11,506 bases of DNA, from the NCBI GenBank assembly GCA_051382305.1, contig JBBCAV010000111.1, positions 1-11,506 of the forward strand, written 5' to 3'. Of the stretch, positions 1-11,506 are shown in pieces (the first letter of the stretch is position 1; every line of letters starts with the position of its first letter). The notes below the pieces were generated by a model that saw only the letters and a list, made by a program, of their open reading frames with translations, was not told the origin of the DNA and made no database searches. This DNA is from Bdellovibrionota bacterium FG-2. GTDB taxonomy: Bacteria; Bdellovibrionota; UBA1018. The position numbers and the translations under genes are program-made.

Positions 1-80
1 GGAAAGGTTGTTGCAAATGAACTCACCGCGGCGATTGCTCAAGCAGATGCCGCGGTGAGTTCATTTGCAACAACCTTTCC
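1..80. repeat. Perfect 32-bp inverted repeat (fold-back) with a 16-nt spacer at the window edge
   Basis: 1-32 GGAAAGGTTGTTGCAAATGAACTCACCGCGGC is the exact reverse complement of 49-80. The spacer 33-48 is GATTGCTCAAGCAGAT. The repeat duplicates the 3' end of the TlpA-like gene. Confidence 0.97.
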
Positions 81-530
81 ACGCCATTGGTGGAGAAGTT
101 GTCGGTTTTTTCCAAGCAGAACTGTTAAAGGTATTGTTGCTTCCGGCGAAAAAGTGGCCAGGGAAGCAAGGAATGCGCGATCGGGCAACCACTGCTCATA
201 TTTAGGCTTGAAGTGGTCGACGAAAGCCTGAATTTCGCGCGTGCGACTTTGAATAGGAATTCCCAGTACGGCAATTTTATTTTGAGAAGCTTTTGGGGAT
301 TGGAGTAGAGCATTAAGCTCTGTTACCTCCTCTGAACAGGACTCACAAAAAGGACTCCAGATTTGGAGGACGACATAATCAGAAGAAAGTTCTGACAACT
401 TCTGATGAAAAGGCGAAGACCATTTACTGATTTCTAAAAAGTCTCGGTTTTCCGGAGAAGCGAATGCAGGCCATGAGGCCCCATTGGCAGCGAAGATCAT
501 TGATATGATGCAAAGCTGATGCAGCCGCAT
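39..530 (-). CDS. TlpA/ResA-like thioredoxin-fold disulfide reductase (redoxin), exported
   Basis: WSPFCESC matches the WxxxCxxC active site, and IPLTVLLGKN..LLHQWRG matches the cis-Pro region. There is an N-terminal signal peptide (..WPAFA). The ATG at 530 overlaps the upstream TGA (TGATG). The C-terminus lies inside the fold-back and is uncertain. Confidence 0.85.
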   Translation of the reverse strand: MRLHQLCIISMIFAANGASWPAFASPENRDFLEISKWSSPFHQKLSELSSDYVVLQIWSPFCESCSEEVTELNALLQSPKASQNKIAVLGIPIQSRTREIQAFVDHFKPKYEQWLPDRAFLASLATFSPEATIPLTVLLGKNRQLLHQWRGKVVANELTAASA

Positions 531-1492
531 CAATACCCTCCATAAGTCAGCCCAAGCGCGACGGATTGAGCGTTAGGTTGATTTGCAAGATAGCGATAAA
601 AGGGAAAAACAGTTTCGTAATTCATGGAAAGTGCCCATGCAGCAGTCGGAAAATAATTCAAGCTTGCAAGACTCGAAAAAAGCCTCTGGGCGGAACCATC
701 TACTGCATTCTTATTAATTGAATCTTGAAGAACCCAAAGCTGACGCATTCCAAGCGTTCCACTCCAACGTTGATTTACAAGGTAGGATGCGCTCTCATTT
801 AGCTGAAACCGATTTCCAGCGCGGTACTGGTATGGGCTACTGATCGGGGCACCTCGCATACTGTCTACCGTTCGCGCGATGGGATAAAAGTATGCGCCAT
901 CTATGGACGCCCGCAAGGGACGATAAAGTTTTGCTGCCGTGAATCCCGCATGAATGTGTGTGGTGCCGTCACTTACTGAATCTAAGCCGTAAGGATCGGG
1001 CGAATCATAAACTGTTTTACCAAACGGTAATCGAACTCCGCTATAGAATGTTAGCTGAGGGCGAAAGGGTAAAAATGCCAGATCCTCCCAAAATGTGTAG
1101 CGTGCCTCGACTGTGGGATCGCCCATCCCAGTTGTGTTTAGTGCCTTTCCCGAAAAGGTGCGATGATTTGAAATAACCGGAACACTTACCCCGGCTTGCC
1201 AGTCCTCTCCTAGTCGGTAAGCGCCGCCCACAACGGTGTTAATTTGGTAATACGAGCTTGAATCTTTGTTGGCTGTGTAATTCCCATAAGGATCAAACTC
1301 TCCCGTAATGGCTCGAAAGCTTGTCGTCACCCCTATTTCATATCTCTGCTCGGAGGGGAGCACGCACAGAGATTGGCCCCCGCTTCCCGCGCAGCAACTT
1401 GCTGCGAGCGCAATTAAAGGCCGGGTCGTGAACACGGCGAAGACCGCAAAAACCAGACCTAATTCAAATCTTAGTTTCAAAGACATACTCAT
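530..1492 (-). CDS. Putative outer-membrane beta-barrel 'transporter' (MetA/SphA-like) with N-terminal CC-x9-C motif
   Basis: The signal peptide ends LALA and is followed by ASCCAGSGGQSLC. It contains GMGDPTVEARY and GVRLPFG motifs, alternating hydrophobic beta strands and an aromatic C-terminal strand (VALGLTYGGY). An alternative start is at 1486. Confidence 0.65.
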   Translation of the reverse strand: MSMSLKLRFELGLVFAVFAVFTTRPLIALAASCCAGSGGQSLCVLPSEQRYEIGVTTSFRAITGEFDPYGNYTANKDSSSYYQINTVVGGAYRLGEDWQAGVSVPVISNHRTFSGKALNTTGMGDPTVEARYTFWEDLAFLPFRPQLTFYSGVRLPFGKTVYDSPDPYGLDSVSDGTTHIHAGFTAAKLYRPLRASIDGAYFYPIARTVDSMRGAPISSPYQYRAGNRFQLNESASYLVNQRWSGTLGMRQLWVLQDSINKNAVDGSAQRLFSSLASLNYFPTAAWALSMNYETVFPFYRYLANQPNAQSVALGLTYGGY

Positions 1493-1940
1493 CCTGACTG
1501 CTTCCGTCTTGAAGCTTAACTGTCATATGCCATAGGCCCGACATCCCAAAAAACAGCGATACCAAATAAGTTCCATCGCTTTGGCGAATTGCCGCGGCTG
1601 TATCGGTGCCCATATCGGGCATTTCCGGCATTTCATAGGTGACGTCAATTTTCATTTGCTCCGATACGCCACTAAGATTGTCGGCATGAACGCAGCGGAT
1701 GAGATAAACGTTATCGCCGACTTCAGCTGAGGTCGTTGCCGATCCGTTTGAACTTTGAAGCGAAGTATAGACGAGAAACGTATTGTTTTTGGAGCTAATT
1801 TTTGACTGAGATGTGGAATCCTGTATGCCGATTACGGGGTTACTTGAATCAGTTTTCTTTTCCTGATTCATGGGGCCACAGCCCATCCCGATTCCGATCA
1901 ATGTTACAATTGCAAAAATTGCTCGATTCATATTGCGCAT
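1464..1940 (-). CDS. YtkA/FixH-like Met-rich lipoprotein (putative copper chaperone-like)
   Basis: The likely start is ATG 1940, after the SD-like GGAAAGGA; the ORF-track extension to 2084 overlaps the NosL-like gene. It has a lipobox (IGMG-C) and YEMPEMPDMG...GTYLVSLFFGMSGLWHMTVKL, typical of the YtkA-like domain. Confidence 0.75.
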   Translation of the reverse strand: MRNMNRAIFAIVTLIGIGMGCGPMNQEKKTDSSNPVIGIQDSTSQSKISSKNNTFLVYTSLQSSNGSATTSAEVGDNVYLIRCVHADNLSGVSEQMKIDVTYEMPEMPDMGTDTAAAIRQSDGTYLVSLFFGMSGLWHMTVKLQDGSSQDEYVFETKI

Positions 1941-1965
1941 CCCGATATCCTTTCCATTAGAACTC

Positions 1966-2430
1966 TTACTTAAGAGCATTTTCGAAACCCTCGACAACGA
2001 CACCGTCGCCATATTTTGTCCTTGCGGCTTCGGCTTCTTTTTTGGTTTGAAACCCGGCGATAAGCGGAGGCATCGCCATTTCACCCATATCTGATTTAAT
2101 GTTCTGACTTTGAATCAGAAAAAAGGCTTTGTTCCCAGAAAGGAAACTGTCAGGATGATTGAAATCGGCGACTTCGGACTTTGAAAGTTTTGGATCATTC
2201 TTACGGATTTTGCGCGCACATGATGCGGAACAAATGTGGTAGCCTTTTGCACTTGAATCACTCCCATGGAGAACGATATGATTCTTGGCATGTTCAGGAA
2301 TGATCATCCCACAAACATCACAGTGATTATCTGACGCCCAAACAGCGATGGAAAGTGACATTAGGGTCAGAGCCAAGAGTGGTCTCAAGTTCTTAATGCC
2401 CTCCAACCACGCCTTGTTCAATTTACTCAT
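1966..2430 (-). CDS. NosL-family copper-binding protein
   Basis: CDVCGMII (CxxCGM), ICSASC, a 'VADF...AFFLIQS..MGEMAMPPLIAGFQTKKEAEAARTKYG.G.VV' NosL-like C-terminal half, a signal peptide (AVWA) and the SD AGGGGG. Confidence 0.8.
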   Translation of the reverse strand: MSKLNKAWLEGIKNLRPLLALTLMSLSIAVWASDNHCDVCGMIIPEHAKNHIVLHGSDSSAKGYHICSASCARKIRKNDPKLSKSEVADFNHPDSFLSGNKAFFLIQSQNIKSDMGEMAMPPLIAGFQTKKEAEAARTKYGDGVVVEGFENALK

Positions 2431-2785
2431 AAATCCCCCTCATGCGAGCAGTCATAGACGGTTTCACATAGTCTGTAAAGTTACGCATCTTAGTGAACGC
2501 GTGTTTTCGTGTAGAGAATTGAAATGAAATAAAAAAACACTTCGGATGTCACATTCTTTGGGGTTCGTGCGTATATACTTTCCGGGCTGAAGAGGTGATC
2601 CCGTTCAATAACTGATGAATAAAAAAGAGTACCCATCCTTGGCGATGCTCTCAACGCAGTCATATTTGATCTGAAGGTGTGTTTGAGTGATTTGATGCGT
2701 CGCGCTATGTCCTAGGGGATTGGAGAGCTGACATGAAGGCACGGAGGGGGATCGGGGCACCTGTTATTCCGCCGGAGAGGATGAG

Positions 2786-3436
2786 TTACAACAACGAGCC
2801 CTTTGACCCAAAATAAAAATGAAGGTTGCCACCGATGCCCCAAAGGATGACTCGTGGGAGCGGGTCTGTCCCGTTGACTCTAGAGAAATACTCGTAGGTT
2901 CCTTCCAATCCAAAATCGATGTTGCGTTCAATTTCGCAATGATATTCTGCAGCTATTTGTGTTGCAAAATTAACGCTTACGGTACCTTTTTTGGAGGACA
3001 TCATCCATCCTGTAGACTGAACGGCGATTCCCGGTGCGAGGCTCACTGAGAGGTTTCGCGTGGCGAAATCCGGTGGAAAAAGAAAGAGCCGAACGCGCGG
3101 AAAATAATGGACCATGCGAAGCGGTGTTCCGACGACTCCAGCGATTGAAAACTGATCACCAGATATCGGGACTGCCATCTGGTAACCGATACCAATACGA
3201 TTATTCTCCCCCAAGAGAAGCTCGCCGCCAACGTTTAATCGAAAGGGAATCGAGTTCTCGTTTGCAACGAGAACCCCGCTTCCAGCTCCGGCCCAGACGC
3301 CAAAACGGGGTTGGGGATCCGCCCCTTGGGCGCTTGCCCCACTCAAAAACAAAAATGCACCGGGAGTCAGTAGCATCAAGAGAAACGGGATATAGGCATT
3401 CAATGTTATCTTTTGCATCTTCATCATCTTCATCAT
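2786..3436 (-). CDS. Hypothetical exported protein, probable small outer-membrane beta-barrel
   Basis: It has a signal peptide (..ASAQG), Gly/aromatic alternating strands (RFGVWAGAG, DFGLEGTYEY, WGIGGNLHFYF) and the SD-like GAAAAGGT. Confidence 0.6.
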   Translation of the reverse strand: MMKMMKMQKITLNAYIPFLLMLLTPGAFLFLSGASAQGADPQPRFGVWAGAGSGVLVANENSIPFRLNVGGELLLGENNRIGIGYQMAVPISGDQFSIAGVVGTPLRMVHYFPRVRLFLFPPDFATRNLSVSLAPGIAVQSTGWMMSSKKGTVSVNFATQIAAEYHCEIERNIDFGLEGTYEYFSRVNGTDPLPRVILWGIGGNLHFYFGSKGSLL

Positions 3437-3515
3437 CTACCTTTTCAGCCGTACCTATGTAAATGAGGTCTCCGTGGTGTACATCGCGACTTCAAAAGAT
3501 GGACCTTGGGGCACT

Positions 3516-3803
3516 TCACACCAAAGTCATTCGGTGCAAATAAGATTGAGCAACTTCGTCCTCAGGCAGACGCAAGACTCTCGCAATTTGAGCAATCCGA
3601 GCCCTTGTGTAAGCAGGCGCGGGTAGGCTATCAAAACTATCAGCTTCAATAAGCTCGATAAGACTCGGCCGAATATTGGTCAAGGCAGACAGGTCTGTGA
3701 CGGATATGGCCAATGCTTCTCTCGCGTATCGTAGCGAAGCTCCCGACCATTGAGGTGGACTGAGTGAGCCGGAATCGCTGCTTGTCCCAATCTGTTCCTG
3801 CAT
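3516..3803 (-). CDS. XRE/RodZ-N-like (HTH_25) helix-turn-helix protein
   Basis: GASLRYAREALAISVTDLSALTNIRPSLIELIEADSFDSLPAPAYTRARIAQIARVLRL matches the RodZ N-terminal HTH pattern. There is no transmembrane or periplasmic part. Confidence 0.85.
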   Translation of the reverse strand: MQEQIGTSSDSGSLSPPQWSGASLRYAREALAISVTDLSALTNIRPSLIELIEADSFDSLPAPAYTRARIAQIARVLRLPEDEVAQSYLHRMTLV

Positions 3804-3810
3804 GATCCCA

Positions 3811-4161
3811 CTAATTCATCAATTGCTGATGGGGTGGCTGATGAGGATTATCGCCATCAAATTTGGCAAACTCAGCCGCCATCTTTGCCTGGATGTACCC
3901 CGAGTAAGTTCCGTCACCGTGGCGGATGATTTCCTTTAGCAGATCAACTGAAGGCTGAGTACGACCGTTACGCTCTTTTTCATACATGAGCTGGGTCAAA
4001 GCGGTCGCAGTAATGTCGTTCTTCGATTTGTTATCGATGACTCGCACATCTCGCCCCGACTTGAGCGTCTTATCCAGTTGATCGAGCGTGACGTATTTTG
4101 AGTCTTCTGGATCGTAGAGCTTGCGGTTCTGATAACGTTTAATAATTTTCGCTTCGATCAT
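3811..4161 (-). CDS. PhaR-like (PHB accumulation regulator) DNA-binding domain protein
   Basis: IIKRYQNRKLYDPEDSKYVTLDQL...GRDVRVIDNKSKNDITATALTQL is the PHB_acc_N signature. The SD is GAGG. Confidence 0.88.
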   Translation of the reverse strand: MIEAKIIKRYQNRKLYDPEDSKYVTLDQLDKTLKSGRDVRVIDNKSKNDITATALTQLMYEKERNGRTQPSVDLLKEIIRHGDGTYSGYIQAKMAAEFAKFDGDNPHQPPHQQLMN

Positions 4162-4305
4162 AAGTACCTCTTTCCCGTGCGATGCTTTATATCCTTCAAC
4201 GGCTTCCCTGCTGCAAGGTTTTTCGATTAATGCCTAAAAACGAATAATATCACACCGCATAATCAGTCTTTTTAGTCGAAAAATGTCGAGGCGACTTGGT
4301 TTTTC

Positions 4306-4334
4306 TTGCGTATGGCTATTGTTTTCCGTACTTT
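4306..4334 (+). promoter_or_regulatory. Candidate sigma70 promoter for the HU-family gene
   Basis: TTGCGT (4306-4311), a 17-bp spacer and TACTTT (4329-4334), about 30 bp upstream of the ATG at 4366. Confidence 0.4.
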
Positions 4335-4365
4335 TTTTAAATCCCAACAAGGAGAGGGACAATCT

Positions 4366-4713
4366 ATGGCTAAAACTAAATTCCATTTCATTAACCAACT
4401 TCACGAGCAGATTCTGAAGACCGTCACGACCACTAAGCAGGGTCAAATCAGACTCAAACGCGCTGACCTCAAGAAGGTTCTCGAAAATACGCTCATGGCG
4501 GGCGCCAAAGCTGCGGCCGGGGGTGAGCGTGTTCGCTTGCCAATCGTCGGTGCTTTACTGCGCAAAGAAGTAAAAGCTCGTAAGGCAGGCAAAGGTATCA
4601 ATCCCTTCACCAAAGAGGAGATCACGATTAAAGCGCGTCCTGCTTCAAAGAAGCCAAGGTGGAGTTTCCCCAAAAGTCTGAAGGAAACTTTCGCAAATAA
4701 AAAACACTGGTAA
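4366..4713 (+). CDS. HU/IHF-family histone-like DNA-binding protein
   Basis: GERVRLPIVG...KARKAGKGINPFTKEEITIKARPASKKPRWSFPKSLKE is the HU arm motif (GxNPxTxE). The SD AAGGAG precedes ATG 4366. The protein is 115 aa. Confidence 0.92.
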   Translation: MAKTKFHFINQLHEQILKTVTTTKQGQIRLKRADLKKVLENTLMAGAKAAAGGERVRLPIVGALLRKEVKARKAGKGINPFTKEEITIKARPASKKPRWSFPKSLKETFANKKHW

Positions 4714-4745
4714 GTTCTTGTCACTTTCTTGTCACAATGACGAGA

Positions 4746-4786
4746 TCCCCGCCCGTCTCACCTTCAGCGGGCGGGGAATATTTTTT
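4746..4786 (+). terminator. Rho-independent terminator after the HU-family gene
   Basis: A 10-bp GC-rich stem TCCCCGCCCG (4746-4755) / CGGGCGGGGA (4768-4777) is followed by ATATTTTTT. Confidence 0.8.
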
Positions 4787-5107
4787 GGCATAGAGGCTTG
4801 AGTTCCATAAATTCGATGTGAGAATGACGAAAATATCAAAGCATGTCCTCATTTACAGCGACACCTGAGATCCATCTCAACCTTTAAACGGTTTCATCTA
4901 CGCCAGGGCGGCTGAAGAGCTTTTCTTTCAATAAAGCTGAATACCCTTGATTGATGGAAACGGCGTTTCCCTTTTTGCGCGTTCTTTCAATCCAAGCATA
5001 AGCTGCCACGGCCATCAGGGCGTGTCTTTCCGACGATTGTTAATTTCGACCCGCCCTCCGCGAATGAGTCTTTTGCTCCGATGGAGCCCCCGCAACCAGC
5101 CCGTTTT

Positions 5108-5170
5108 ATGCCCCCCCTTTTTAAGGGGGCATCCGCTGACCCCTTTTCAAAAAGTTTGAAAAACCGGGGT
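5108..5170. repeat. Two adjacent inverted repeats in the non-coding leader of the conjugation-like operon
   Basis: ATGCCCCC (5108-5115) pairs with GGGGGCAT (5125-5132). ACCCC-TTTTCAAA (5139-5151) pairs with TTTGAAAA-acc-GGGGT (5155-5170). Confidence 0.7.
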
Positions 5171-5408
5171 TTCTACAAAAAACCGTCTACTCCCTCCAAA
5201 TGACTACGAATTTCGCCCTCACTTTTCAGGAAACTTGAAAGGTTTCCGCTTTTCTCCGGGCCGAAAAAAACACCATAAAATAGTTTTTCCCATTCGGCCC
5301 GCGCACTTGTCTCACGTTGGCACGATCCCGCAGTTTTCTTGCAATTTAAGAAGTGAGGGGACCGAAACAATTCGGTTCTTAAACAAACAATCGCAGGAGG
5401 ATTTGGCG

Positions 5409-5588
5409 ATGGATTCTTATTCTGATGTTCCACAATTTTGTAAGTGCCCACGGTGCAACACTCGCAGCTACGAAAGGTTCAGCACTCATAGTTACTGCAT
5501 CGAGTGCAATTACAGCCCCGTCATTGAGGACAGCAGTTCGGAAGCTCAAATTCCGGACTGGGCGCTCAAGGCTGCAGGTTTCGTATGA
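5409..5588 (+). CDS. Small zinc-ribbon protein (59 aa)
   Basis: A perfect SD AGGAGG precedes ATG 5409. CPRC-x13-CIEC gives two CxxC knuckles. Confidence 0.75.
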   Translation: MDSYSDVPQFCKCPRCNTRSYERFSTHSYCIECNYSPVIEDSSSEAQIPDWALKAAGFV

Positions 5589-5953
5589 ATGACAGGACAA
5601 GCAAAGTTTGGAGCGAATTTTCAACACAACCACTTAATCAGGAGAATGCAATGTCAAACTATAACGAAGTAAAATGGCCCGGAAAATGGAATGCAATTGA
5701 GGATAACACTAACCCCTATCAGATTATAGGACTCACTCACCCAGCACTTTGGCAATGCCTTTGGTCCCGCTTGAGAATTTTTCTCGCTCAACTAAGAGCG
5801 CTTAGCCTCATTCTAACAATGACGGTGAAGAAGACTCTCTCACGACTGAACCGCCGATGGGAGCTGGCAGCGCAAATGGACCAAAGAGTCTGCGATGCCC
5901 GAGCTCAGCATTTTCAAAGCCACTGGATGCTGGATCGAACCAATCGAATCTAA
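5585..5953 (+). CDS. Hypothetical protein
   Basis: It overlaps the zinc-ribbon gene by ATGA. An alternative start at 5651 has the strong SD CAGGAG (MSNYNEV.., 100 aa). Confidence 0.6.
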   Translation: MNDRTSKVWSEFSTQPLNQENAMSNYNEVKWPGKWNAIEDNTNPYQIIGLTHPALWQCLWSRLRIFLAQLRALSLILTMTVKKTLSRLNRRWELAAQMDQRVCDARAQHFQSHWMLDRTNRI

Positions 5954-5988
5954 CCAAGTAACAAACTACTAATAGAGAGGAACAGATC

Positions 5989-6141
5989 ATGAAAACCTAT
6001 TTAGCCCTGATAATTTTAGGAACCTGCCTCATGCACCTGGGATGCACCACCACCAATCCTAGCACGGGATCGAAACAAAAGCGTTTTCAGGACGCCGATT
6101 ATCCAATGCTCAATCACGTCGGCCGCCCCGGGCGTTTTTAG
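5989..6141 (+). CDS. Small lipoprotein (50 aa)
   Basis: SD GAGAGG. MKTYLALIILGTCLMHLG-C is a signal peptide with a lipobox, followed by a polar/basic tail. It is below the ORF-track size cutoff. Confidence 0.65.
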   Translation: MKTYLALIILGTCLMHLGCTTTNPSTGSKQKRFQDADYPMLNHVGRPGRF

Positions 6142-6161
6142 GCCATTCTAAGGAGACAATT

Positions 6162-6332
6162 ATGCAGGAAACTACTTTAGAAATGTCCCCCAGTGAAGCC
6201 TTAAACCAATTGAAACTGGAATTCTTCGAATGGTGTGGGCTGCTCTCGATCGATGAAATTGTTTCAAATGCAAATCTGATTCGAGTCATCGAACGGTTGG
6301 AGCGAATGCTTCTCGCAGCGGGCGGCGAATAG
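6162..6332 (+). CDS. Small hypothetical protein (56 aa)
   Basis: SD AAGGAG. The sequence MQETTLEMSPSEALNQLKLEFFEWCGLLSIDEIVSNANLIRVIERLERMLLAAGGE has an amphipathic helical pattern. Confidence 0.6.
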   Translation: MQETTLEMSPSEALNQLKLEFFEWCGLLSIDEIVSNANLIRVIERLERMLLAAGGE

Positions 6333-6365
6333 AAACCAATAAAACAAAAAGGGAGAATATAACGA

Positions 6366-6596
6366 ATGAACAACGACGAAAAAAGATCAGGCGGAATCGA
6401 AACCATCCAAGACTCAACGCTCTTTGAGGAAGTGGCCTCAAGATTGCGAAAAGTCTATCACAGGCAGCACGGCATGGAGTTTCTCTACGGCTGCTTTGAG
6501 TTCGTCTTTCACGAGGGAAGATTTCAAGGCATTGAGGATCGCCCCCGTTACAAACGCTACAAAAGCCCAGCCCGACTGACCACTGTTCCCACCTAA
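6366..6596 (+). CDS. Small hypothetical protein (76 aa), weak resemblance to YezD/DUF2292
   Basis: SD GGGAG. FLYGCFEFVFHEGRFQGIE resembles the 'yGsv.i.vhdG.v.qIe' pattern by eye only. Confidence 0.55.
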   Translation: MNNDEKRSGGIETIQDSTLFEEVASRLRKVYHRQHGMEFLYGCFEFVFHEGRFQGIEDRPRYKRYKSPARLTTVPT

Positions 6597-6615
6597 TACG
6601 AGAGGACAAAATATT

Positions 6616-6786
6616 ATGATCCTACCAATCGAAACCGGAATTGAACAACTCACTCGTGCGCTCTCAGAGAACGAGAAGAAAACCAATATGAGACTGATGA
6701 AACAAATGGCGAAAATGAAGCAAATGCTTTGCCTTTTTCGCGAAACGCTTGCGCCAAAACGCGTGAAGCAAGAAGGAGGTTACTAA
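6616..6786 (+). CDS. Small hypothetical helical protein (56 aa)
   Basis: SD GAGGA. The sequence runs MILPIETGIEQLTRALSENEKK...KQEGGY. Its stop overlaps the next start (TAATG at 6784-6788). Confidence 0.55.
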   Translation: MILPIETGIEQLTRALSENEKKTNMRLMKQMAKMKQMLCLFRETLAPKRVKQEGGY

Positions 6787-9700
6787 TGGTAAACGGCCAA
6801 AGCCAACCAAGCACTCAGGATACCCCCCCCGTCCTTGCCTTGATTGGGCTCGGCCTGGTCGTGGGAGCTTATGCGTATTTTGAGTCTCCCACGACCTTCT
6901 CTTTCATTCAAAAAGGGGCTGATCGTTACGTCAACGCTCATGTTAATTTCCTTTGCGTCACCCTTTTCTTCCTATCAATGAACGTCGTCTGGCTCTACTC
7001 GATCATTGCTCGAATCTTCGGCTTTCAAAAACAAGGGAGTAGACTTGAGTTTCTCACCGGAAAACGTCCCGATGACGGAGGTGCCACAGGAGCCTCCGGC
7101 GCCACAGGCCTCGTTGGCGCGACCGGCGATTCATGGAAGGCTGCGCTCGTGTCTTTGGCGATAGGCCTATCGACCTATGGGGTGCTTGCGCTATTTTCAT
7201 TTCCGGGCAACTCCGAACTCACTCCTCTTCTATTTTCACCCGGGGCTCGTGATCACATCTTGAATCTCCTTCGTATCAATATAGGGATGTTTGCCTTTGT
7301 CGTGGCCTTCGTACTAGGTCGAATGCCTCTTTGGAAGCGCCTGAGTCAACTGGGCCTGCGCGGACTATTTAGGGGCCGGGGAATCCCAGAAATGCCAAAG
7401 CCCGAAAACGGAATTGCCCTAGGCACCGTTGGCGAAGACAGCCCAAATGAAACGCCAGAATGGGCGGTTATGAATCGACGCGCGCTTAACGGGAACATCA
7501 TCGCTACAGGAAGCCCCGGCACCGGAAAGACCCAAGGTTTCATCCTCTCATCGTTTGACCAGATTCTTGGAAACTTTAAACTGCGCCCCTCAATCCTTGC
7601 GATTGATCCCAAGGGCACCTTTATCCCCGAAGCGCTCAAGATCATTGAAAGGCACGGTCTCAGTGAACACGTTTTGCATTTACGCCTCGGAGGAAACGTC
7701 ACGTTTAATCCGATCTTTAACCTCAATCCACTCAAGGGGGCTCGTTTCCTGGATACTGCCCAAATGATCAGGGCCGCCGCCGTAAACTTCATGGGGAAAA
7801 ACTTTGATTCACCCTTCTGGGAACTTTCATCCTTTAATCTGATCAAGAACTGCCTGGTTCTTTGTGGAGCAAAATACCTGAAAGCTGATTTTAATCTAAA
7901 CAACCTTTACAATGAAATGATCGTCGCCTCGAAAGATGCCAAAGAGGCAGCCAAAGCCCTTCGCGACCTGGCCCCAGACCTGATCCATGAAAAGCAGTTT
8001 GATGACGAAGAGCGATTCAACATTGAATGCGCCGCAAAGTATTTTGAGGAATTTGAGCAATTAGACGACAAGGTCAGGACCGGTATTCTTGCCACTTCGA
8101 CGGCTTTCCTAAATCAATTTCAAGAGTATCAGGCAAGCCGGATTTTCTGCCCAAAAAACGAACAAGCCACAATCAAAAGCATGGATGAGGTTATTGATAA
8201 CGGAAAAATCATCCTCTTTGATGTCGCAAGTCCGGCACTCGCGCGCTCAATGGGAACATTCATCAAACTGCATTATGAGCAATCGATCTTAAACCGCCTA
8301 GCGGACACAAAACGGGGCAAAGACCGAACGGCGTTTCTCATCATCGACGAATACCAAGACGTTGTATCCACAGGGGGCGGCTCGGCCCTTGGCGATGACC
8401 GATTCACTTCAAAATCGCGGGAAGCCAATGGCTCATTAATTGTGGCTACGCAAAGCCATAGTTCATTGAAAAACTCTATCGGCAAGGATGACGCCGCCAA
8501 GGAGCTGCTGCAAAACTTTCGAACTGTTATTGCTTGTCACTCGACAGACATAACGACCATCAAGAATTTTCAGGAGCTTGCGGGCCAAGAAGATCGGAAA
8601 CGGTATTCACACAGCGTTTCAGAAAATTCCCATCGCCCAAGCCGCAATCTCATGCTCGGGGGATTTGAGAGCAATGACGCCAATATCAGCGAATCAGTGA
8701 GCACGAGCGAGCACAAGGAGTATTCGGTAACCGGCAAGGAATTCTCGCGGCTGACGGCTTTTGAGGCTTTTTCGCTACTTTATGACGGCATTCAAAATCG
8801 CTATAAGAAGTTGTTCCTGAAACCCTATTATCTGAAAAAGAAAAACACTACGCATAAAGTGATCCTCACTCACTTAAAAGCGGCGGTTCTAGGTGCCGCG
8901 CTGTCTCTCATGGTAGTCACATCAAGCTTTGCCTTTCCAAACGTGTGTACGGTAGTTAATACCTCCGAGTTCAATTCTTGCCTGAGTTTCGAGGTCGGTA
9001 CCTGCATGTGCGGCTTTCCTGTCCCACGTCCTTGCGCCAACTTCTCGTATTATGTTCCCCAGACGTTTATCGAAGTGTTTCCCAACCCTAAAAGCTCGTA
9101 CTTTGGAGACTTACCGGGGGCGGCTGTGCAATTATCGACTTTAGGCTCGCTCCCGGTTCCATTTGGCGCAGAGGCCGACGACGACACGCAGAGTTTTCAC
9201 GCTCACGCTCTGGGTGTGCCGCTTGCGATGATTCCCTTTTCGACCCTACCCTGCACCAGTGCCCGGGTAGAGCAAACCTGTTTTGATGCAATGAGTGAGC
9301 ACCTGGGCTCCAATTGGAGTACGGGCGGTGCGGATCTCTTGCAACCAAACTTCATGGCATGGAGTCTGAGCCCCAAGGCGTGTCTGCTAAAAGGAGCGGC
9401 AACCTCCCTGGCAGGTGAATTAGAGCCAAATCTAGGTGGCGCAGGCGCCGGTTGCAGCATTCCGATGGGTTGGCTCCCAAAATATCCACCCTCGACTCAT
9501 TCGGCCTGTACTGGCTGGGGAACGTTTTATCCCCGCTCGGGGGTCTATCATGGCCCGAGTCAAACGACTGGCGCACTTATGGTTGCCTCCCGCATGAAGA
9601 GTCTGGGCGGTGATGTATTTCACACCACCCCCGCCTCGATTGATGAGGTTTGGCAGATGATTACGCCGCAATCGTCTTCGTGTTTTAGAGAGGGCCAGAA

Positions 9701-9887
9701 TGTCGGAGTCCTAGATACGATTAAGAACGTCCGAGAACTTGGCCGACTCACCTCCGGGAAACTAACGGGCTATCTCTTCACCGTGTGGTCAAAAGTGAGC
9801 TGCTGCCGCGATCTGGCGCTTGTGCCGGCCGCCTATATCGCACTTGAAGCGATGAGTGTTGCTTGCAAAGGAGCGGGCTCACTATGA
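6786..9887 (+). CDS. Type IV coupling protein (VirD4/TraD-like ATPase) fused to a C-terminal TraU-like domain, 1033 aa
   Basis: The SD GGAGGT precedes ATG 6786. There are four N-terminal hydrophobic segments, Walker A GSPGTGKT (7509-7532), IDPKG, FNP, SPFW, Walker B FLIIDEYQ (about 8334-8357), SREA and VATQS. After a hydrophobic segment (8880-8933) comes a 14-Cys domain with the TraU-like motifs CMC..PVP..SYYVPQTFIEV, GWGTFYPRSG, WQMITP..SSC and YLFTVWSKVSCC. Confidence 0.85.
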   Translation: MVNGQSQPSTQDTPPVLALIGLGLVVGAYAYFESPTTFSFIQKGADRYVNAHVNFLCVTLFFLSMNVVWLYSIIARIFGFQKQGSRLEFLTGKRPDDGGATGASGATGLVGATGDSWKAALVSLAIGLSTYGVLALFSFPGNSELTPLLFSPGARDHILNLLRINIGMFAFVVAFVLGRMPLWKRLSQLGLRGLFRGRGIPEMPKPENGIALGTVGEDSPNETPEWAVMNRRALNGNIIATGSPGTGKTQGFILSSFDQILGNFKLRPSILAIDPKGTFIPEALKIIERHGLSEHVLHLRLGGNVTFNPIFNLNPLKGARFLDTAQMIRAAAVNFMGKNFDSPFWELSSFNLIKNCLVLCGAKYLKADFNLNNLYNEMIVASKDAKEAAKALRDLAPDLIHEKQFDDEERFNIECAAKYFEEFEQLDDKVRTGILATSTAFLNQFQEYQASRIFCPKNEQATIKSMDEVIDNGKIILFDVASPALARSMGTFIKLHYEQSILNRLADTKRGKDRTAFLIIDEYQDVVSTGGGSALGDDRFTSKSREANGSLIVATQSHSSLKNSIGKDDAAKELLQNFRTVIACHSTDITTIKNFQELAGQEDRKRYSHSVSENSHRPSRNLMLGGFESNDANISESVSTSEHKEYSVTGKEFSRLTAFEAFSLLYDGIQNRYKKLFLKPYYLKKKNTTHKVILTHLKAAVLGAALSLMVVTSSFAFPNVCTVVNTSEFNSCLSFEVGTCMCGFPVPRPCANFSYYVPQTFIEVFPNPKSSYFGDLPGAAVQLSTLGSLPVPFGAEADDDTQSFHAHALGVPLAMIPFSTLPCTSARVEQTCFDAMSEHLGSNWSTGGADLLQPNFMAWSLSPKACLLKGAATSLAGELEPNLGGAGAGCSIPMGWLPKYPPSTHSACTGWGTFYPRSGVYHGPSQTTGALMVASRMKSLGGDVFHTTPASIDEVWQMITPQSSSCFREGQNVGVLDTIKNVRELGRLTSGKLTGYLFTVWSKVSCCRDLALVPAAYIALEAMSVACKGAGSL

Positions 9888-11506
9888 AATTTGGTGAACA
9901 CCTCCTAAGCACCGGCAAGATCACCTCCGAAGCCCTTCTCGAAGGCCTCGATATCCAGCGATTTCGCCCCCTCAAGCTCGGGCGATTGCTCCGTGACCTG
10001 GGTCACCTCTCTCAAGCGGAGTTAAACCGGCAGCTTCATGTTTTTAAACTCGCCGCAGGGTCAATGAAGGAGTTGTCCGCCAAGACTTTGGGAAGTGAAT
10101 TGAAGGCCAAAGTGACAGCGGGACTTCTCACAAGTGAGATCATGATTTGGGCTAACAGCAATGGTTGGGTACTTTTCAATGAATCTAATGAATCTGATGG
10201 AGCCGTTGAGTTTTTAGGCGAATCGTACCAAGACGAATTACTCGAACAGGCTGAGGATCGCTTTAAGAAGGCTGCAACCCTCGTTGTTGTAAGTGCAGAC
10301 GCCCTCAATCACGTTCGGCACTTGGCGGGCCTTATAATGCCCGGTTCGCCGGATTCGGGGGGATCGCGAGATTCAGGGGCATCACACCTCAGGGTCGAAA
10401 GCAAAGCGACGGACGAGCAAAAGATTGGGGCATCTGACCCCTATACCTCCCTATTTCGGGATACGATCCTGGCTGCTCGAACGCTCGGCGCAAGTGACAT
10501 CCATATTCAGCCGTCTCGCGACGGATTAGACATCCGTTTTCGGGTTAATGGTGACATGAGCACTTGGAAAACTTTGTCTCTTGAGCATCGCAGGTCCTTT
10601 ATCAATGAGGTAAAGCGACTCACAAATCTTTCGATTGCGATTAGTGGACGCGCCCAAGATGGGCGCACTTCGTTTAAGTCCTGGCAGCTTGATCTGCGGG
10701 CGAGCCTTCTGCCTTCACAATATGGCGAAAAAATAGTTTTGCGTCTTCTCGATCTTACCAGAAATTTCGATCTCTCAAGCCTTGGATTTGATCCCGAAAC
10801 TCACAATGATCTCTTGCAAGCTCTTCAATCTAAGAACGGGGTTATCATTATTTCGGGGCCTACCGGGAGCGGCAAAACCACGACGCTCTATACGCTCCTG
10901 TGCGCGTTGGATCGCTCGACGAGAAACATCATTACACTAGAAGACCCGATTGAATACGGGATCGAAGGACTGACCCAAGTTCAAGTCAGTCCAAAACTGA
11001 CTTTTGCAGAGGCGCTGCGATCCGTGCTCCGACAAGACCCTGACGTAATCTTGGTCGGAGAAATCCGCGACGCAGAGACCGCCGATCTTTGTATCAAAGC
11101 GGCATCGACGGGGCATCTTGTTTTGTCCACCTTGCACGCAAACGGCGCCGCTGAAGTGGTGGGAAGACTCATCAACCTGGGCATTGACCCCTATATGCTC
11201 AAGTCGGTTCTGAGATTCACCTCGGCGCAGCGGCTCGTCAAACGCCTTTGTCCGTCATGCTCCATCCCTGGGACTTGCGACGCAGGCAAGTTCTTCGAAA
11301 AAGCTTCAGACTTGAAGCTCCGCGCTGGCGCTGGAATAGATTATCGAAAGCGCGAACCAAACGGTTGCCCCCAATGCCAATCGGGAATCAAAGGACGCGT
11401 GCCCGTGCTTGAGTACATGCGTGCGCAACACATCAAATCCTACCTTGAAGCCCCACCCACGGAGCGGCCGCAGCTCACCGTATCGCTCCAAGAAGCTTGT
11501 TTGAGA
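9884..11506 (+). CDS. GspE/PilB/MshE-family assembly ATPase with N-terminal MshEN domain (3' end beyond the window)
   Basis: The frame opens at ATG 9884 (ATGA overlap) and is absent from the ORF track because no stop falls in the window. Motifs are ASDIHIQP, AQDGR, YGEKIVLRLL, Walker A GPTGSGKTTTLY (about 10856), TLEDPIEY, LRQDPDVILVGEIRD, TGHLVLSTLHAN, QRLVKRLCPSC and GCPQC (Zn tetracysteine). Confidence 0.95.
   Translation, partial: MKFGEHLLSTGKITSEALLEGLDIQRFRPLKLGRLLRDLGHLSQAELNRQLHVFKLAAGSMKELSAKTLGSELKAKVTAGLLTSEIMIWANSNGWVLFNESNESDGAVEFLGESYQDELLEQAEDRFKKAATLVVVSADALNHVRHLAGLIMPGSPDSGGSRDSGASHLRVESKATDEQKIGASDPYTSLFRDTILAARTLGASDIHIQPSRDGLDIRFRVNGDMSTWKTLSLEHRRSFINEVKRLTNLSIAISGRAQDGRTSFKSWQLDLRASLLPSQYGEKIVLRLLDLTRNFDLSSLGFDPETHNDLLQALQSKNGVIIISGPTGSGKTTTLYTLLCALDRSTRNIITLEDPIEYGIEGLTQVQVSPKLTFAEALRSVLRQDPDVILVGEIRDAETADLCIKAASTGHLVLSTLHANGAAEVVGRLINLGIDPYMLKSVLRFTSAQRLVKRLCPSCSIPGTCDAGKFFEKASDLKLRAGAGIDYRKREPNGCPQCQSGIKGRVPVLEYMRAQHIKSYLEAPPTERPQLTVSLQEACLR

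Follow-up and report, generated by a model that had tools for sequence, protein, structure and literature searches.

The 11,506-nucleotide stretch of DNA from Bdellovibrionota bacterium FG-2 that is analysed here (contig JBBCAV010000111.1, positions 1 to 11,506 of the forward strand; hereafter the window) contains one stop-free open reading frame (ORF), running at 6786-9887 on the plus strand from an ATG at 6786 to a TGA at 9885-9887, which encodes a 1033-residue protein in which a type IV coupling protein (T4CP) and a TraU-like protein, both of them subunits of type IV secretion systems (T4SS), are joined in a single polypeptide. This is a new architecture of two known families, and the gene marks an apparently undescribed family of ICEs (integrative conjugative elements) in the predatory Bdellovibrionota. 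Between the two parts lies a hydrophobic segment with the appearance of a Sec signal peptide, and the reading that best accounts for the arrangement, held here with moderate confidence, is that of a polyprotein, whose two components would be synthesized together and then separated by a signal peptidase I cut at the signal peptide retained from TraU.

The original prediction, made from the letters of the window, had described a single uninterrupted ORF with four hydrophobic segments in its N-terminal part and a fifth further on, and this is confirmed by the sequence and by a hydropathy scan, which places the segments at residues 14-32, 56-74, 119-137, 158-182 and 699-717 (Kyte-Doolittle windows). 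By the positive-inside rule, according to which the basic flanks of membrane segments stay cytoplasmic, the strongly basic stretches after helix 4 and before the fifth segment would put the ATPase on the cytoplasmic side of the membrane and the TraU part on the opposite one, in agreement with the topology that had been proposed from the even number of N-terminal transmembrane helices. The assignment of the central part to the VirD4/TraD-type ATPases also stands, as T4CP families of Pfam score above their cut-offs (PF10412 TrwB_AAD_bind, 29.4 bits against 20.5; PF12696 TraG-D_C, 29.8 against 22; PF02534 T4SS-DNA_transf, 22.8 against 20.1). The nearest NCBIfam model, the VirD4-like equivalog conju_CD1115, is matched below its cut-off (80.5 against 250). 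In a Foldseek search with the AlphaFold 2 (AF2) model of the whole protein, which has a predicted local distance difference test score (pLDDT) of 87, the top solved neighbours, each with a probability of 1.00, are Cagbeta (8dol, E 1.2e-13), TrwB (1e9s, E 7e-11, TMt 0.64-0.67) and DotL (6sz9). A sequence search of the Protein Data Bank (PDB) returned no chain for the single protein and, for the full-length profile, only chance-level rows (E 0.38 and 0.66). In an alignment of 69 sequences the Walker residues G245, G247, K248, D521 and E522 show no variation. Of the 120 homologues listed by a database search (221 matches; all homologue counts given here refer to the listed 120), 114 match the strict Walker A pattern.

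The protein thus combines the profile match, the Walker A and B motifs, the TrwB-like fold with its nucleotide-binding and all-alpha domains and the N-terminal anchor of a T4CP, although the four helices of this anchor are an atypical number. Like R388 TrwB, Helicobacter pylori Cagbeta/VirD4, F TraD and Legionella DotL, with which it shares Pfam families, fold and Walker motifs, it is anchored at its N-terminus and belongs to a family with relaxase and T4SS genes nearby; unlike them, it has four N-terminal helices in a detachable module and a C-terminus that is extended by a predicted signal peptide and a predicted exported domain. For comparison, IceD4 of ICEclc is reported to have 728 residues and two transmembrane helices (PMC10018362). 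In some relatives the N-terminal module is encoded separately, by an ORF of ~200-217 codons that immediately precedes the ATPase-TraU ORF, which has ~805-830 codons (G159:C49:10210-13183; G149:C6:199045-202012; L017, G094:C2), such that the ATPase-TraU polypeptide is itself unanchored at its N-terminus.

The C-terminal third of the protein had been described as a TraU-like domain of roughly 317 residues with 14 cysteines, and this description holds, albeit through a remote match: the TraU family PF06834 is found at 29.5 bits against a cut-off of 26.5, and the last 317 residues (717-1033) contain 14 of the 20 cysteines of the protein. A precomputed PF06834 match exists for 79 of the 120 listed homologues and is absent from the other 41, and a profile of the C-terminal domain aligns with F TraU residues 69-328 over 223 columns (hhalign; E 6.8e-5, probability 63%). 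The domain is consistently rich in cysteine, with a median of 14 and a range of 10-15 in 119 homologues, and 10 cysteines are invariant among the 69 aligned sequences; F TraU has 10 cysteines (PMC10939261). Modelled alone, the domain gives a pLDDT of 90.6 and a predicted template modelling score (pTM) of 0.90. No PDB chain was matched in a sequence search with the profile of the domain, Foldseek returned nothing at E <= 0.001 and the highest Z that VIA-align reached among 48,161 chains was 3.5, with neither of the fold searches yielding a TraU chain or a clear relative; this means that no known fold was found and does not establish a new one. The assignment to TraU is remote but consistent. 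In common with F TraU (330 aa) and ICEclc IceU (315 aa), the domain has PF06834, a high cysteine content, a predicted Sec signal (internal in this case), a predicted periplasmic location and a place among TraE/K/B/C/G/F-like genes. The differences are that TraU and IceU are stand-alone proteins of ~315-330 residues, whereas the domain forms the C-terminal third of a coupling protein, and that its sequence similarity to F TraU is low.

The evidence that carries the polyprotein reading lies at the junction. The fifth segment had been proposed to export TraU as a transmembrane helix. The topology that this implies is supported, but the segment is more than a plain transmembrane linker, since both its pattern and its position are those of a cleavable Sec signal peptide. 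When junction positions are counted back in fixed register from the invariant F/I-P-N-V-C motif (n=120), Ala, Gly or Ser is found at -3 in 103 and at -1 in 98 of the 120 homologues, compared with 34 at -2 and 22 at -4; at -2 bulky residues prevail, Pro and Ser are enriched from -6 to -4, the stretch from -10 to -8 is rich in Leu and Pro never occurs at +1 (0/120). In the alignment, the sequence of the segment is unconserved and its length variable, yet this pattern is strict, and divergent fusions also retain AXA-type sites. The median hydrophobic run, at 13 residues in 123 fused junctions, compares with 11 residues in 41 stand-alone signal peptides and 15, by the same measure, in the N-terminal membrane helices. 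The stand-alone relatives carry an ordinary N-terminal signal peptide that ends immediately before the same FPNVC. In the AF2 model a helix at 690-709 gives way to a disordered stretch at 710-714 (pLDDT below 50), shortly before residue 717. Because of the signal-peptide pattern and of a position matching that of the stand-alone N-terminal signal peptide, the ORF is read as a T4CP fused to pre-TraU, and the fifth segment has, as far as sequence can tell, the architecture of a signal peptidase I substrate, namely that of a canonical Sec signal peptide. A lipoprotein signal at the junction was considered as well and was rejected, as F-P-N-V precedes C721 and provides no lipobox-type residue.

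The fusion is neither an assembly error nor confined to FG-2. Two assembled contigs (as distinct from raw reads) bridge the junction region at 8800-8950, where the original prediction had called for a coverage check, with 0 gaps. The Logan contig of run X1, which may be the source sample of the window, covers 7420-9555 with 0 differences; a contig of run X2, a lake-water metagenome from another study that gives no cover at 8240-8680, spans 8691-9487 with 42 substitutions and no gap, and the reading frame has therefore been kept in a diverged strain. In all 120 listed homologues (98 of at least 950 aa, 19 of 800-949 aa and 3 fragments) the T4CP part is followed by the conserved beginning of the C-terminal domain, and their sources, where named, are lineages of the Bdellovibrionota. 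Among 301 sampled genomes of this phylum, 30 contain a match: a near-complete stop-free frame across the junction is found in 18 genomes with 11 family codes, FG-2 included, partial junction-crossing frames in 5 more and a stand-alone TraU-like ORF of 335-414 codons in 9. The patchy distribution, at ~10%, fits a mobile element. A search of 1.84 billion representative sequences with the profile of the C-terminal domain gave 127 proteins at E <= 0.001 and 38 at E <= 1e-30; clustered at 50%, the full-length matches in the latter, stronger range comprise at least 15 fused forms (>= 800 aa) versus 2 stand-alone forms, and the more divergent fusions P0248, P0253 and P0255 each match T4CP and TraU families of Pfam. 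A tblastn search of 72,556 plasmids with the TraU-like domain returned no match at E <= 0.01. The one-off loss of a stop codon, which had been named as the finding that would overturn the fusion, is thus not what the homologues show.

The surroundings of the gene, as reconstructed from its relatives, indicate that it stands at the head of an ICE-like element whose mating apparatus is of the F/G type. In relative G149 the order is N-terminal membrane module, ATPase-TraU, a GspE-like T2SSE ATPase, a TraF-like thioredoxin and an unknown ORF, followed by TraE, TraK, TraB (TrbI family), TraC (VirB4) and further unknown ORFs and ending with TraG_N, a MobA/VirD2-type relaxase and a tyrosine integrase. 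This order recurs in 8 other clusters and, from the TraF-like gene onward, on a further contig of FG-2, and a relaxase and an integrase lie downstream in all six fused clusters examined among the relatives. The FG-2 contig in question (C60, 19,894 bases; L033, G000:C60) encodes, on one strand, a TraF-like protein cut by the contig end, TraE, TraK, TraB, TraC, TraG_N, relaxase and integrase. It is the site of the only match to the relaxase in FG-2 and probably represents the continuation of the element in the window. The markers seen (TraE/VirB8, TraK, TraB/VirB10, TraC/VirB4, TraG_N/VirB6-like, TraF-like and TraU) are those of the mating-pair formation classes MPF_F and MPF_G, between which the element is left unassigned; TraU homologues are known from both (PMC4027160). 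The cluster ORFs of families F7, F12, F13 and F14 have no match in Pfam, no profile-profile search having been made.

The relationship between fused and stand-alone forms is illustrated by an unrooted FastTree tree of the C-terminal domains, with 167 rows (123 fused and 44 stand-alone) after removal of 8 truncated or ambiguous rows. The state changes between fused and stand-alone only 4 times on this tree, versus a mean of 39 upon shuffling, and none of 500 shuffles gave a number as low. Of the stand-alone rows, 38 group in one clade and 4 in another, and two are singletons placed within the fused sequences, an arrangement in which the main change may be read in either direction, as the tree has no root. 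A nested singleton is the second copy of FG-2, on contig C107, with 65% identity to the domain in the window. Directly 5' of the TraU start of this copy, at ~9740-9800 of L014 (G000:C107), is an in-frame stop-free stretch that resembles the C-terminal tail of a T4CP; because this TraU nests in the fused clade and is preceded by such a stretch, the sequence suggests a secondary loss of the ATPase part. A tblastn search for T4CP remnants over ~40 kb around the C107 copy gave nothing below E 0.3. In the stand-alone clusters L014, L022 (G094:C3) and L023 (G225:C1), with the downstream loci L030-L032, the order of the mating apparatus is complete. In all three clusters neither the T4CP part nor the relaxase was matched (tblastn with the G149 proteins over ~40 kb, which a relaxase of a different family would escape), and three genomes that hold only stand-alone TraU (G225, G194 and G285) contain no T4CP family of Pfam above cut-off. 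The stand-alone copies do not represent the fusion protein divided over two genes. The T4CP and the relaxase appear to come and go together, with TraU staying with the apparatus, and this co-occurrence ties the ATPase part to DNA processing. The stand-alone clusters as such are T4SS-like, with no DNA-processing module detected. Other kinds of TraU fusion were also observed, among P0323 and P0330: a protein of 673 aa in which TraU comes after a polysaccharide lyase 14 domain, and an 897-aa protein with an N-terminal part of ~630 aa, which has no assignment, before TraU.

In the proposed mechanism, the ORF opens the operon for the mating apparatus of a Bdellovibrionota ICE and would specify four parts, namely a four-helix membrane module, a cytoplasmic VirD4/TrwB-type ATPase, a Sec signal peptide derived from a pre-TraU gene and a Cys-rich TraU-like domain. 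While the protein is being made, the signal peptide would insert with its N-terminus inside and its C-terminus outside, the TraU part would be exported and signal peptidase I would most likely cleave after A716. The predicted products are a periplasmic TraU of ~35 kDa with FPNVC as its N-terminus and a coupling protein of ~79 kDa that would keep an extra C-terminal membrane anchor, both of them made 1:1 and at the same membrane site, where they might co-assemble and serve conjugation. The original prediction had spoken of a pump either covalently tethered to or co-synthesized with a mating-pair component; the signal-peptide pattern favours the second of these options over the first.

A permanent tether, the main rival reading, in which the fifth segment would be an uncut signal anchor and each ATPase subunit would bear a periplasmic TraU that links the pump to the mating-pair component, is nevertheless in keeping with a fusion that persists in homologues whose identity to the window protein is 45-78%, with a self-consistent topology and with an evolutionarily stable fused state (the 4 changes on the 167-row tree), as well as with the hydrophobic runs of at least 18 residues that occur in 13 of the 123 junction segments. 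It is considered rather unlikely because small residues at -3 and -1, a bulky -2, a c-region with Pro and Ser and a short h-region have all been kept in an otherwise unconserved sequence, a pattern that is expected from selection for signal peptidase cleavage and that would be superfluous in an anchor. Translation from an internal start shortly before the signal peptide, by which most of the TraU would be made and the full-length fusion would be a minor product, could make use of an in-frame GTG that lies a few codons ahead of the h-region in the window; yet no Shine-Dalgarno-like motif precedes this GTG, and the matching alignment columns hold conserved residues instead of a conserved start codon, for which reasons such a start was rejected as the main route and is given only a very slight chance. 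The joining of two genes by an indel or a single stop-codon loss in FG-2 only, as an artefact or a pseudogene, might have been suspected of a fragmented assembly (433 contigs, 85% completeness), but it is refuted, to the point of being negligible, by the gap-free bridging contigs, the junction shared by all listed homologues, the stop-free frames in 17 other genomes and the invariance of the Walker residues and of 10 cysteines.

A further explanation agrees with the polyprotein reading as to mechanism and differs from it in meaning only. Adjacent T4CP and traU genes may have merged neutrally, by loss of a stop codon, such that the retained cleavage makes the fusion equivalent to two genes and no partnership is implied. 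The intact signal peptide is as expected from such an event, as are the retention of TraU in the three clusters without a T4CP or relaxase match and the nesting of the stand-alone C107 copy, with its T4CP-tail-like remnant, in the fused clade, from which it appears that the link can be lost. On the other hand, fused forms dominate the diversity of the subfamily and reversals are rare; a neutral merger is a possibility to be taken seriously, but a doubtful one.

Several observations weigh against co-synthesis followed by cleavage, or at least against parts of this reading. The match to TraU is remote in its bit score (29.5 versus 26.5), in its hhalign probability (63%) and in the 41 of 120 homologues without PF06834, and there is no solved TraU fold with which the C-terminal domain could be compared; the pTM of the full-length model, at 0.61, makes it uninformative on the relative placement of the domains. 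The runs of 18 or more hydrophobic residues would be long enough for a stable anchor in those 13 of the 123 fused forms, and Ala, Gly or Ser is missing at -1 in 22 of the 120 homologues, most of which belong to a subclade with Ile at +1 in which the cleavage site may be shifted. The clusters with TraU alone suggest that TraU is useful without a coupling protein and that its role is not bound to the T4CP. In addition, the association of the gene with a relaxase and a mating apparatus in FG-2 itself depends on C60, the link of which to the window is a probable one.

In the characterised systems, as the original prediction had stated, the two proteins are separate: traU (330 aa) and traD of the F plasmid (NC_002483) are distinct genes ~11 kb apart, and ICEclc encodes IceD4 and IceU, the latter of 315 aa and bearing a signal peptide, as distinct proteins (PMC10018362). 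The original prediction had moreover known of no characterised system with this architecture, and literature searches, which did not extend to supplements, found no paper on a T4CP-TraU fusion and no description of Bdellovibrionota conjugative elements with such a gene; a search combining Bdellovibrionota, conjugative and type IV secretion returned nothing, and a Bdellovibrio genome paper goes no further than to speculate that tRNA genes carry ICE-like insertions (PMC3539863). Over-long proteins were dropped as likely artefacts when T4SS profiles were built (PMC4027160), and fusions of the present type may have been removed by this length filter. A precedent within T4SS is the fusion of VirB3 with VirB4, which occurs in some systems and has been interpreted as a sign of a functional link (PMC4027160, PMC12624023). 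There, as in the T4CP-TraU protein, two T4SS subunits share a polypeptide, but in VirB3-VirB4 a small membrane protein and a cytoplasmic ATPase are united without a change of membrane side, whereas the parts of T4CP-TraU, joined by a cleavable-looking signal peptide, are predicted to lie in different compartments. With respect to processing, viral glycoprotein precursors are described as using an internal signal sequence to export the part that follows it, with signal peptidase making the cut, as is proposed here. A bacterial case is reportedly provided by the FbcH cytochrome b/c1 precursor of Bradyrhizobium japonicum, a polyprotein with an internal signal peptide that is said to be cut by signal peptidase. 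In polyproteins of this kind cleavage has been shown experimentally, compared with a prediction from the sequence pattern for T4CP-TraU. If cleaved, the junction would be a rare case in bacteria of one polypeptide giving rise to a cytoplasmic enzyme and a periplasmic protein by way of an internal signal peptide.

TraU is needed for efficient F-type transfer, and its function is called unclear (PMC10018362, PMC10939261). In F-like systems, deletion of TraU strongly attenuates both transfer and piliation, and heterologous TraU restores DNA transfer and not pilus production (PMC10939261). The conserved natural fusion to an ATPase leads to the testable hypothesis that TraU acts at the DNA-transfer step, which would fit the restoration of transfer without pili. 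On a stronger, Rosetta-stone interpretation, the coupling protein would be partnered at the DNA-translocation channel by a periplasmic TraU, which in these elements would stay attached or be handed over in cis; if this were true, a hexameric DNA pump would be faced by a matching periplasmic ring of TraU, and TraU would be placed in the substrate pathway and not in pilus assembly. This interpretation is offered as speculation and is thought improbable.

Table 1. Positions in the window of the T4CP-TraU gene, its parts and its associated features.
Feature	Position	Strand	Remarks
Shine-Dalgarno-like AGGAGG	6774..6779	+	6 nt upstream of ATG; sequence reading
Whole ORF, T4CP - signal peptide - TraU-like domain	6786..9887	+	1033 aa + stop
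N-terminal membrane module, aa 1-220, four hydrophobic helices	6786..7445	+	poorly conserved; own ORF in some relatives
VirD4/TrwB-type coupling ATPase, about aa 225-680	7458..8825	+	Pfam; Foldseek on AF2 model
Walker A GSPGTGKT, aa 242-249	7509..7532	+	sequence motif
Walker B FLIIDE, aa 517-522	8334..8351	+	sequence motif
Internal Sec-type signal peptide (predicted), aa 684-716	8835..8933	+	basic n-region, h-region 699-711, c-region ending SFA
Mature TraU-like periplasmic domain (predicted), aa 717-1033	8934..9884	+	14 Cys, begins FPNVC; Pfam, hhalign, AF2
GspE/PilB-like T2SSE ATPase	9884..11506	+	ATG overlaps fusion TGA (ATGA); frame open at window end
Small Cys-rich ORF, family F10	5235..5588	+	start uncertain; no match in Pfam scan

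The gene that follows the fusion encodes a full-size GspE/PilB-like T2SSE ATPase (Pfam, 314.7 bits), which is translationally coupled to it through the ATGA overlap. Most of the related clusters examined have a GspE-like gene after that for TraU, and all of them contain one as an ORF family or by tblastn; to our knowledge, such an ATPase is unusual in F/G-type T4SS. Upstream, the small Cys-rich ORF of family F10 recurs before the T4CP-TraU or TraU gene in related clusters. A sigma-54 activator and a histidine kinase, which are not found in the window, lie near the T4SS cluster in seven loci (L015, L017 and L019-L023) and may constitute a conserved regulatory module of the element; in L015 and L021 a solute-binding protein and a major facilitator superfamily transporter are situated beside them. 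The remainder of the window includes genes for a PhaR-like regulator (3811-4161), an HTH_25 protein (3516-3803) and an HU-like protein (4306-4713), as well as a run of envelope genes on the minus strand (39-2430) that are unrelated to T4SS and encode a thioredoxin-like protein, a MetA-pathway-type outer-membrane protein, a YtkA-like protein and a NosL-like protein, a composition that suggests a cluster for copper or redox handling.

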